64,000 nucleotides of DNA from a virus. Position 1 is the first letter of the stretch. Every line of letters starts with the position of its first letter. The notes beneath the pieces were generated by a model. It made no database searches and was not told where the DNA came from. It was given only the letters and a program-made list of their open reading frames with translations. Below are positions 5,824 through 7,116 of the stretch, one piece after another. Both the position numbers and the translations under genes were made by a program. The DNA lies in the IMG/VR virus record IMGVR_UViG_3300027963_005443; one strand, 5' to 3'.

Positions 5824-7116
5824 TTAAATTCCGCCCTCGTATCGATCAACCCAGCCAGCACTCTTAGAATGCATCCATACAACCCATTTTTGTGGCTTGA
5901 CCTCACAATTAAATTCTCTCCACACCTTTAAATAATCTTTATCTTGCTTCATCATGTTTATTTCATTTTCATCGGCATCTCTTCTGTTTATAACAGTTCC
6001 ATCATTCAATTCAAATGAAACTACCCAAAAATCATAGTCATCATGCTTTAATTGATTGTGATAAATATCAATACAGTGCTTGAATATCTTCAAGAAAGAA
6101 TTCTTGTAATCTTCATCATTATCTATTACAGGATTGGGAGGATTTTTTAAATCCAGGGTAAACTGCTGGACTGCTCTCATTTTAAAATTAAGTCCGCTAT
6201 ACCTCTCATACTCTTCCAAAGTTCTTTCTTTGCCAAAGTCATATGGACCGAAATCAATATCTTTTTTTTCTCCATCCATCTCGAATAATTTTCGATTTCT
6301 TCTATGACAGGTATCGTTCTTCTCTACCCAATTCTTATCGTCATCCCACTGTTTTGTTCTTCCTTGACGGGTATATTCATGCCAAGCAATTATCTTGTGA
6401 GGATGAAATAGATCATAACCACAAGTATATGCTCTTACTGCTATGCTAATCTCTTCTCCATGAAAATAATAGTTTGGATCGTGTTGAACTTCTTTAGCAA
6501 AACTGCCTGGGGCAAAACAAAAGTGAGCACTATAAAATCTAGCGGGGATTGGCTCTTTTAGATTTTGCCATCCTTCTATGTGTCCTGGCAAGAAGAATAC
6601 AGCTCCTTCGGGTATAAACCTGTCGAAATTCATTCTCCAAGGCTCTTGAACACGCTCTGCTGGGTCGTTCAATGGATTAAAACTTGGAATATACGAAGTG
6701 ATTAAAGGCTTCTTGTGTCCTTTTTGTTTTAATTGTTCGAGAATGTTTATGCATTCAGTGTCCCAATTTTTAACAAATCTATGGTGGCTATCTATTTGAA
6801 AAGTCCAATCTTCTCCTCCATAGCTCTGTTGGGTTAGGTTTCGTGCCCAACAAACACCACGACTATCTGTGTGTTTAATATCCAATATTATAAATCTTGG
6901 ATCATTTTTATATTCGTCTAAATTATCCCAAACATCTTCTGATGAATGTTGCCATGCGATGCAAATTTTTAAATTCTCAGGATGCTCGGCATTTGCAATC
7001 ATATCTCTGAGAGTGTGAATTAACTGATTATCTCTATATGATGCTATTTGTACATATATAGAGTTTTTCTTAACATCATTTGAATTGCCAATAGTTTTAT
7101 TTTTCTTCTTTTTCAT
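5824..7116 (-). CDS. GT60-family polypeptide GlcNAc-transferase (Gnt1/Gnt2-like, Pfam GlcNAc)
   Basis: SIYVQIASYRD, SRGVCWARNLTQQ, FQIDSHHRFVKNWD (DxH metal motif), FHGEEISIAVRAYTCGYDLFHP and WHEY, in the same order as Dictyostelium Gnt1-type enzymes. Confidence 0.85.
   Translation of the reverse strand: MKKKKNKTIGNSNDVKKNSIYVQIASYRDNQLIHTLRDMIANAEHPENLKICIAWQHSSEDVWDNLDEYKNDPRFIILDIKHTDSRGVCWARNLTQQSYGGEDWTFQIDSHHRFVKNWDTECINILEQLKQKGHKKPLITSYIPSFNPLNDPAERVQEPWRMNFDRFIPEGAVFFLPGHIEGWQNLKEPIPARFYSAHFCFAPGSFAKEVQHDPNYYFHGEEISIAVRAYTCGYDLFHPHKIIAWHEYTRQGRTKQWDDDKNWVEKNDTCHRRNRKLFEMDGEKKDIDFGPYDFGKERTLEEYERYSGLNFKMRAVQQFTLDLKNPPNPVIDNDEDYKNSFLKIFKHCIDIYHNQLKHDDYDFWVVSFELNDGTVINRRDADENEINMMKQDKDYLKVWREFNCEVKPQKWVVWMHSKSAGWVDRYEGGI

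Follow-up and report, generated by a model that had tools for sequence, protein, structure and literature searches.

What an enzyme related to the mucin-initiating glycosyltransferases of protists might do for a phage is the question raised by the gene at positions 5824..7116 (minus strand) of a 64,000-nucleotide (nt) stretch of viral DNA, IMG/VR virus record IMGVR_UViG_3300027963_005443, hereafter the window. The gene encodes a member of family GT60 and is placed between genes for proteins with tracts rich in threonine and proline (Thr/Pro tracts). An initial annotation of the window had proposed that the enzyme modifies these tracts in the cytoplasm, and this proposal finds partial support in a co-occurrence test, in the gene neighborhoods of unrelated phages and of bacterial type VI secretion system (T6SS) clusters, and in the lack of N-terminal signals. 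Thus, on the basis of this repeated genomic association, the enzyme family, a GT27-like fold, and the absence of export signals, the GT60 enzyme probably acts in the cytoplasm to glycosylate Thr/Pro tracts of proteins that the phage itself encodes.

The product of 5824..7116 is a GT60 family member by hidden Markov model (HMM), sequence motifs, and fold. The open reading frame (ORF) starts with ATG, encodes 430 amino acids (aa), and contains the motifs IASYRD, RGVCWAR, QIDSHHRF, and HGEEI; a full-length GT60-type enzyme had been predicted from these motifs and an HMM search proposed, and the search bore the prediction out with a match to Pfam PF11397, "Glycosyltransferase (GlcNAc)" (GlcNAc denoting N-acetylglucosamine), at E 6.6e-71 and 240 bits, above the curated cut-off of 21. 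The PF11397 HMM is covered by the enzyme in two parts—that is, approximately positions 1–45 (judged by analogy with relatives) and 102–350—and PHROG 24687, which carries the category "moron, auxiliary metabolic gene and host takeover," covers the enzyme over its full length (E 3.6e-172). Neither a signal peptide nor a membrane segment is present, and the enzyme is accordingly classed as soluble. Characterized GT60 enzymes all act on polypeptides: they are polypeptide α-GlcNAc-transferases that initiate mucin-type O-glycosylation in Dictyostelium and Trypanosoma cruzi or, in other cases, modify hydroxyproline of Skp1 in the cytoplasm, and the family is set apart from GT27 by having no ricin-like domain (PMC8724618; PMC6939170).

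The structure model that the initial annotation had called for was made with AlphaFold2 and is confident (pLDDT 94.6, pTM 0.90), with GT27-like fold neighbors. Its core consists of alternating strands and helices, consistent with GT-A, and the GT-A catalytic domain was placed at approximately residues 19–315 (6172..7062, minus strand) from a 46-sequence alignment and the secondary structure of the model. Each residue of the DxH motif D109-S110-H111 (nt 6784–6792) is at least 90% conserved in this alignment, and E221, E222, and H246 are invariant among the 46 homologs. Every listed fold neighbor in the PDB is a GT27 polypeptide N-acetylgalactosamine (GalNAc)-transferase (best E 1.9e-10, 11–18% identity); sequence searches of the PDB, both with the single protein and with a profile, returned no relative, so no solved GT60 structure was found that way. 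Judged from the model, the window enzyme is most likely a metal-dependent GT-A glycosyltransferase. Its C-terminal domain of about 90 residues (approximately 340–430; 5827..6099, minus strand) was modeled by itself (pLDDT 94.5) and matched to an FN3 domain of NCAM (VIA Z 7.2, a generic match), with no Foldseek match below E 0.03; it is an FN3/Ig-like β-sandwich, not a β-trefoil, so the enzyme carries no ricin-like lectin domain. Eukaryotic GT60s are described in the literature without a C-terminal targeting domain. Assignment of a function to this domain from its fold was considered and rejected, the FN3/Ig-like matches being generic (Z ~7).

The candidate acceptors are nine window proteins with Thr/Pro-rich tracts (34–338 residues each, 1305 in total), composed of 45% Thr, 18% Pro, 11% Leu, and 7% Ser; the window contains 349 occurrences of the TxTxTxTxTxT codon pattern, versus 0 in 100 shuffles. 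Ten such genes had been listed at the outset, at 944, 2373, 4272, 8290, 10697, 21264, 30114, 34131, 53093, and 54417, and all hold up except that at 944, which has just a C-terminal run of seven Thr. The accompanying remark that the tract proteins lack an obvious signal peptide was correct, as no N-terminal hydrophobic signal is present in any of them, nor in the enzyme. GT60 does not, by contrast, lie directly downstream of 4272..5819 as had been stated: the two genes are on opposite strands and converge, with their stop codons set apart by only 4 nt. That neighbor (plus strand; no Pfam or PHROG family) has tracts at residues 146–248 and 307–363 and a run of 15 Thr, and beyond it a tract scan identified the protein of 2373..3716 (minus strand; tracts 128–250 and 310–340). 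On the other side of GT60 are the plus-strand genes 8290..10686, whose product combines tracts 418–546 and 574–612 with an FGE-sulfatase/C-type-lectin-like domain, and 10697..16201, which encodes an 1834-aa RCC1-repeat protein with a tract at 110–152 and a run of 18 Thr. Farther away, a subtilase-like protein (21264..22808, plus strand) ends in a 131-residue Thr/Pro tail (370–500), two FGE-sulfatase-domain proteins of 1328 and 1275 aa (30114..34100 and 34131..37958, both minus strand) have two Thr/Pro linkers each, a 417-aa protein (53093..54346, plus strand) has a short tract at 92–125, and a 964-aa FGE-sulfatase-domain protein (54417..57311, plus strand) has 338 Thr/Pro-tract residues. The window thus encodes a member of an initiating polypeptide N-acetylhexosamine-transferase family together with dense Thr/Ser/Pro tracts, a combination expected of a mucin-type O-glycosylation system.

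The same association recurs in other viruses. A Thr/Pro-rich ORF lies within 4.5 kb of GT60 in 15 of 15 related IMG/VR loci; at least seven distinct loci have it as the adjacent upstream gene, at a distance of 40–125 bp. Apart from GT60, there is almost no homology between these loci and the window, and the tract proteins near GT60 are of unrelated types (DUF285; peptidase M43 with DUF642; crAss muzzle domain).

It had also been suggested that GT60 presence be compared with Thr/Pro-repeat content across large phages. For this purpose, the Thr-tract pattern was counted over whole records, with the same pattern read backwards as the control. Among GT60-bearing records of at least 100 kb, XacN1 has 213 matches (control 2), Xoo-sp13 has 150 (5), CM1/RAS14 have 15 (1), and six IMG/VR records have 33–876, and two GT60-bearing fragments of 7 kb and 11 kb have 41 and 66. 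Records without GT60 that were not selected for tracts comprise ten jumbo phages (231–595 kb) with 0–4 matches, which include LR756511, the nearest relative of the window by DnaE, and GAP32 and CBB, distant RaK2-like relatives of XacN1 (1 and 3 matches, respectively); three DnaE relatives without GT60 have 1, 0, and 0, and three large records without GT60 that were selected for tracts have 2, 3, and 21. Expressed per 100 kb for records of at least 100 kb, the nine with GT60 range from 4.7 to 273 versus 0 to 11.6 for the fourteen without, an association with a Mann-Whitney p of 2.4e-6 that ignores kinship and is overstated, as the compared records are not phylogenetically independent. Close relatives by DnaE number only four loci in IMG/VR, too few to serve as a control set. 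The tract-selected sample comprises 80 loci from an IMG/VR scan for a 7-Thr pattern, taken among the matches listed, and gives no collection-wide base rate; in 36 viral records chosen for their tracts alone, the two with GT60 rank second and fourth by tract load, and those ranking first and third are fragments, 10–13% complete. The densest tract load seen is that of a 22-kb viral fragment (G042, locus L087; 10% complete, without GT60), in which a single huge T-x-T repeat gene gives 973 matches (control 112).

A second setting of the pairing is bacterial. In 23 of 80 bacterial neighborhoods examined, GT60 is located inside a T6SS cluster, and the taxa concerned are Burkholderia, Paraburkholderia, Cupriavidus, Achromobacter, Ralstonia, Trinickia, Paraherbaspirillum, and one member of the Neisseriaceae. 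The gene order is TssF, TssA, a fimbrial-like gene, GT60, Rhs (in most loci), and VgrG where captured, as exemplified by locus L240 (GT60 at 5998–7395, VgrG at 8315–11179; further loci of this subtype are L226, L239, L244–L248, L250–L256, and L260–L282). All 16 captured VgrG spikes end in a Pro-rich repeat tail with Thr or Ser, the tail types including (TP)n of up to ~60 repeats, (PPPTE)n, (SETPPP)n, and (PPPSEE)n. VgrG resembles phage proteins in that its assembly takes place in the cytoplasm and involves no Sec signal. In the GC-rich genomes of Ralstonia sp. 25C and Paraburkholderia ferrariae, the backward control is as frequent as the pattern, such that the concentration of matches in one tract is informative and the total is not: a single (TP)n tract ~1 kb from GT60 accounts for 52 of 67 genome-wide matches in the former, and a single tract ~4 kb from GT60 for 41 of 78 in the latter. 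A literature search on VgrG glycosylation returned, among the matches listed, no paper on glycosylation of the VgrG tail, and one on GT60 in phages returned nothing relevant.

The family as a whole is large, with 6601 homologous proteins at E ≤ 1e-5 (4352 clusters at 50% identity), many of them on contigs of 100–490 kb, and with at least 563 bacterial loci at species level. Only four deposited phages carry GT60, namely XacN1, Xoo-sp13, CM1, and RAS14. In a FastTree phylogeny of 96 enzymes (midpoint-rooted for drawing only), the window enzyme falls within a clade of freshwater phages, the XacN1 group is nested in the T6SS-linked clade (local support 100%), and other bacterial enzymes with adjacent Thr/Pro tracts are scattered, so that the window enzyme, the XacN1 group, and these enzymes represent separate clades. 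The bacterial contigs nearest to the window enzyme (L207–L216 and L228; 54–62% identity) derive from metagenome-assembled genomes (MAGs) of Saprospiraceae, Melainabacteria, and Bacteroidia and sit in the phage clade; these contigs, most of them short, may be phage DNA binned into MAGs. Within the XacN1 group, GT60 is followed in XacN1 and Xoo-sp13 by a same-strand gene of ~765 aa annotated as a carbamoyltransferase (XacN1, L016:12010-15727); L017 and L019 are arranged as in XacN1, the ~765-aa gene of RAS14 being annotated "hypothetical," and L018 (CM1) is unannotated. This partner hints at a carbamoylated sugar and was not found in the freshwater clade. Several giant proteins of 1600–2500 aa (P0122, P0124, P0128, P0135, and P0136) carry up to four GT60-like stretches.

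In the mechanism that we propose, the soluble GT60 enzyme would act in the cytoplasm during infection and transfer a sugar from a UDP-sugar to Thr (and Ser) side-chain oxygens within the long Thr/Pro tracts of the phage's large multidomain proteins, ahead of the assembly or release of these proteins. Going by the characterized family members (PMC8724618; PMC6939170), the donor would be UDP-GlcNAc, the sugar GlcNAc, and the reaction a retaining α-transfer. The primed residues might then be extended by GT2-type enzymes of the window, and the benefit to the phage could be a stiffening of the stalks on appendage-like proteins or their shielding from proteases and antibodies.

Several observations weigh against this proposal, in addition to the kinship among the records compared above. 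The tract proteins received no structural-protein annotation in the PHROG and Pfam scans and carry lectin-like, RCC1, and protease domains. Tract load and GT60 do not always go together, since a complete 54-kb record without GT60 (G031) has 30 tract matches and the Stenotrophomonas phages with GT60 have just 15. Proximity is also modest in four large genomes, where 5.5–17.5% of other genes are as close to Thr/Pro genes as GT60 is (combined p = 0.02), and no tract lies within 6 kb in 56 of the 80 bacterial loci. Furthermore, GT60 enzyme activity is known so far from protists only, and the glycoprotein bands of XacN1 virions discussed below are known by stain alone, with no protein assigned to them.

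Other roles for the enzyme can be set against the same evidence. Were it a counterpart of Gnt1, the Skp1-modifying GT60, it would add GlcNAc to hydroxyproline in the Pro-rich tracts after the action of a prolyl 4-hydroxylase. Gnt1 is the sole characterized cytoplasmic GT60 and needs hydroxyproline (PMC6939170), the window enzyme is likewise soluble, the tracts are 18% Pro, and several VgrG tails are PPP-rich and extensin-like; however, five GT60-bearing phage records (two complete, three partial) contain no 2-oxoglutarate oxygenase of PF13640 or PF03171, no hydroxylase turned up among the scanned window ORFs or the identified T6SS-cluster genes, and the poly-Thr runs of 15 and 18 are without Pro, leaving this route very unlikely. 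Direct glycosylation of Thr and Ser would therefore be favored over the hydroxyproline route, given the lack of a PF13640 or PF03171 oxygenase in related records and the Pro-free Thr runs. A non-protein acceptor—that is, a host envelope glycan, a lipid carrier, or the phage DNA, with the tracts being bare flexible linkers—would be in keeping with the many phage glycosyltransferases that modify DNA or O-antigen (PMC5852040), with the label "involved in cell wall biosynthesis" given to some homologs by the Joint Genome Institute, and with the carbamoyltransferase paired with GT60 in the XacN1 group. This, too, is unlikely, as the characterized family members and the nearest solved folds are all polypeptide transferases, the enzyme lacks a membrane segment, the link to tracts reappears both in distinct clades of the enzyme and in T6SS clusters, and the freshwater clade is without the carbamoyltransferase.

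Alternatively, GT60 might glycosylate a host protein during takeover, the link to tracts being incidental. The PHROG category fits such a role, as does the position of GT60 at the end of a minus-strand run of genes that begins with a macrodomain gene (7645..8166; PDB 2fg1, E 6e-10; 5e3b "Macrodomain protein," E 8.7e-8) and continues with a 124-aa ORF without a family match (7097..7471), which lies directly upstream of GT60 and overlaps its start by 20 nt. Such a target would leave unexplained both the VgrG tails and the abundance of tracts in the presence of GT60, compared with near-background counts in most large phages without it, and we regard it as distinctly improbable. GT60 and Thr/Pro proteins might also be functionally unconnected and occur together in some soil and freshwater phage lineages through shared ancestry or habitat: one freshwater clade accounts for many GT60-bearing records, adjacency within genomes is modest, and PT linkers are generally common in unglycosylated proteins. 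Yet the XacN1 group, absent from the listed DnaE relatives of the window phage, shows the pairing as well, the distant RaK2-like relatives of XacN1 without GT60 show background tract counts, and in chromosomal T6SS clusters the dominant (TP)n tract of a 6–8 Mb genome is found 1–4 kb from GT60; coincidence of this kind consequently seems improbable. Glycosylation of the phage's own tracts thus remains the preferred reading, and the enzyme can be compared with known systems on that basis.

Protist GT60 mucin initiators are Golgi type II membrane proteins that act on secreted proteins, whereas the window enzyme is soluble, would act in the cytoplasm of a bacterium, and carries an additional FN3-like domain at its C terminus. 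The initiators of T. cruzi and Dictyostelium nevertheless share with it the Pfam/CAZy family and the lack of a ricin-type lectin domain, and their acceptors are dense Thr/Ser/Pro mucin-like tracts (PMC8724618). Gnt1, the Skp1-hydroxyproline α-GlcNAc-transferase of Dictyostelium and Toxoplasma, is likewise a cytoplasmic GT60 without a signal peptide (PMC6939170), but it has a single acceptor, one hydroxyproline on Skp1, and requires the hydroxylase PhyA, whereas the candidate acceptors in the window are long repeats and the related GT60-bearing phage records are without such a hydroxylase. In location the window enzyme is like Gnt1, and in its probable acceptor like the protist mucin initiators; its FN3-like domain and prokaryotic setting set it apart from both. 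GT27 enzymes start mucin-type O-glycans on Thr/Pro-rich peptides. They provide the closest solved folds (e.g., human GalNAc-T2, PDB 2ffu), share the DxH metal motif, and likewise have Thr/Pro-rich peptide acceptors, but they belong to another CAZy family at 11–18% identity, use a GalNAc donor, and carry a C-terminal ricin-type lectin domain where the window enzyme has its FN3-like domain. A further likeness is to GtfA/GtfB, which add O-GlcNAc in the cytoplasm to the long hydroxy-amino-acid repeats of Gram-positive serine-rich-repeat adhesins before export; these are, however, GT4 enzymes of GT-B fold, with Ser-rich acceptors and accessory Sec export.

Glycosylation of phage virions is a kind of process already known, and GT60 action on Thr/Pro tracts would be another form of it. 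The mycobacteriophage enzymes are reportedly phage-encoded and not GT60, and they are said to act on short tails at the C terminus of capsid and tail-tube proteins rather than on long Thr/Pro stalks within proteins. Mycobacteriophage virions are reported to bear glycans, with glycosylation of the capsid influencing how antibodies recognize it (Freeman 2023, Cell Host Microbe, cited in PMC12691614 and PMC10568470). In XacN1, at least two Schiff-stained glycoprotein bands were seen in virions, and ORF328 and ORF334 were proposed in 2018 as the enzymes that make the glycoproteins (PMC5852040). ORF334 is the GT60 homolog; it and its homologs in Xoo-sp13, CM1, and RAS14 are 46–50% identical to the window enzyme over the full length and are likewise encoded by jumbo phages rich in Thr/Pro tracts, but this group differs in its enzyme clade, shared with the T6SS-linked enzymes, in its carbamoyltransferase partner, and in its tract genes, which are not adjacent to GT60. 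The statement in the initial annotation that no characterized precedent exists in a phage must accordingly be tempered by the XacN1 proposal (PMC5852040) and by the reported mycobacteriophage virion glycosylation (PMC12691614; PMC10568470).

The balance of evidence is about even on a broader proposal, namely that GT60-like enzymes constitute a widespread cytoplasmic "mucin-type" O-glycosylation pathway of bacteria and phages, acting on the Pro/Thr/Ser stalks and tails of proteins built in the cytoplasm but working outside the cell (phage appendage proteins and T6SS VgrG spikes), and forming a prokaryotic counterpart of the mucin initiators of protists, to which it might be related through gene transfer. 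Should this hold, an enzyme so far found to be active only in protists would serve thousands of environmental phages, along with a T6SS subtype of Burkholderiales and one member of the Neisseriaceae, in glycosylating the machinery that they themselves deploy outside the cell, and the long Pro/Thr "linkers" of phage proteins would be glycan carriers rather than passive spacers. The consequences would extend to virion stability and resistance to proteases, to host recognition, and to how the immune system recognizes phages, and the prokaryotic GT60 branch would gain a first function. XacN1 on Xanthomonas citri offers a cultured system for this hypothesis, in which glycoprotein bands have already been seen.

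Other genes of the window could supply or extend such glycans. The initial annotation had mentioned GT2/GT7/GT9-like enzymes, of which two GT2-type enzymes stand: a GT2 glycosyltransferase at 38439..39167 (minus strand; PF00535, E 1.1e-19) and a GT2-type glycosyltransferase at 58582..59316 (minus strand; PF10111, E 2.7e-9), both candidate extending enzymes. The GT7C match of the latter is weak (PF02709, E 2.5e-4, below the cut-off), and no GT9 was found in the window. A dTDP-4-dehydrorhamnose 3,5-epimerase-like (RmlC-like) protein at 24740..25342 (minus strand; PF00908, E 2.1e-52) might contribute to sugar-nucleotide supply; the start of its gene is overlapped by ~60 nt by an HNH endonuclease ORF (25284–25862, plus strand).

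The window belongs to a large phage, encoding a split DnaE, PhoH, PurA, IF3, DHFR, and ThyA. The stretch is present in freshwater and lake metagenomes, with no RNA run among those listed, and the phage-specific promoter motif GTTTC-Y5-GGTACGGTT has no match within the window at ≤2 mismatches. Of the 31-letter words sampled from the window, 40% occur in the nearest record, G001; this record is 21% complete, contains neither the GT60 region nor a PF11397 match, and is uninformative on GT60. A full translation initiation factor IF3 is encoded at 41176–41730 and an alginate lyase at 57403–58542. DnaE is split into two minus-strand genes, 51595–52983 (PHP and N-terminal part) and 47607–50225 (the remainder), between which lies an unannotated 330-aa plus-strand ORF (50441–51433).

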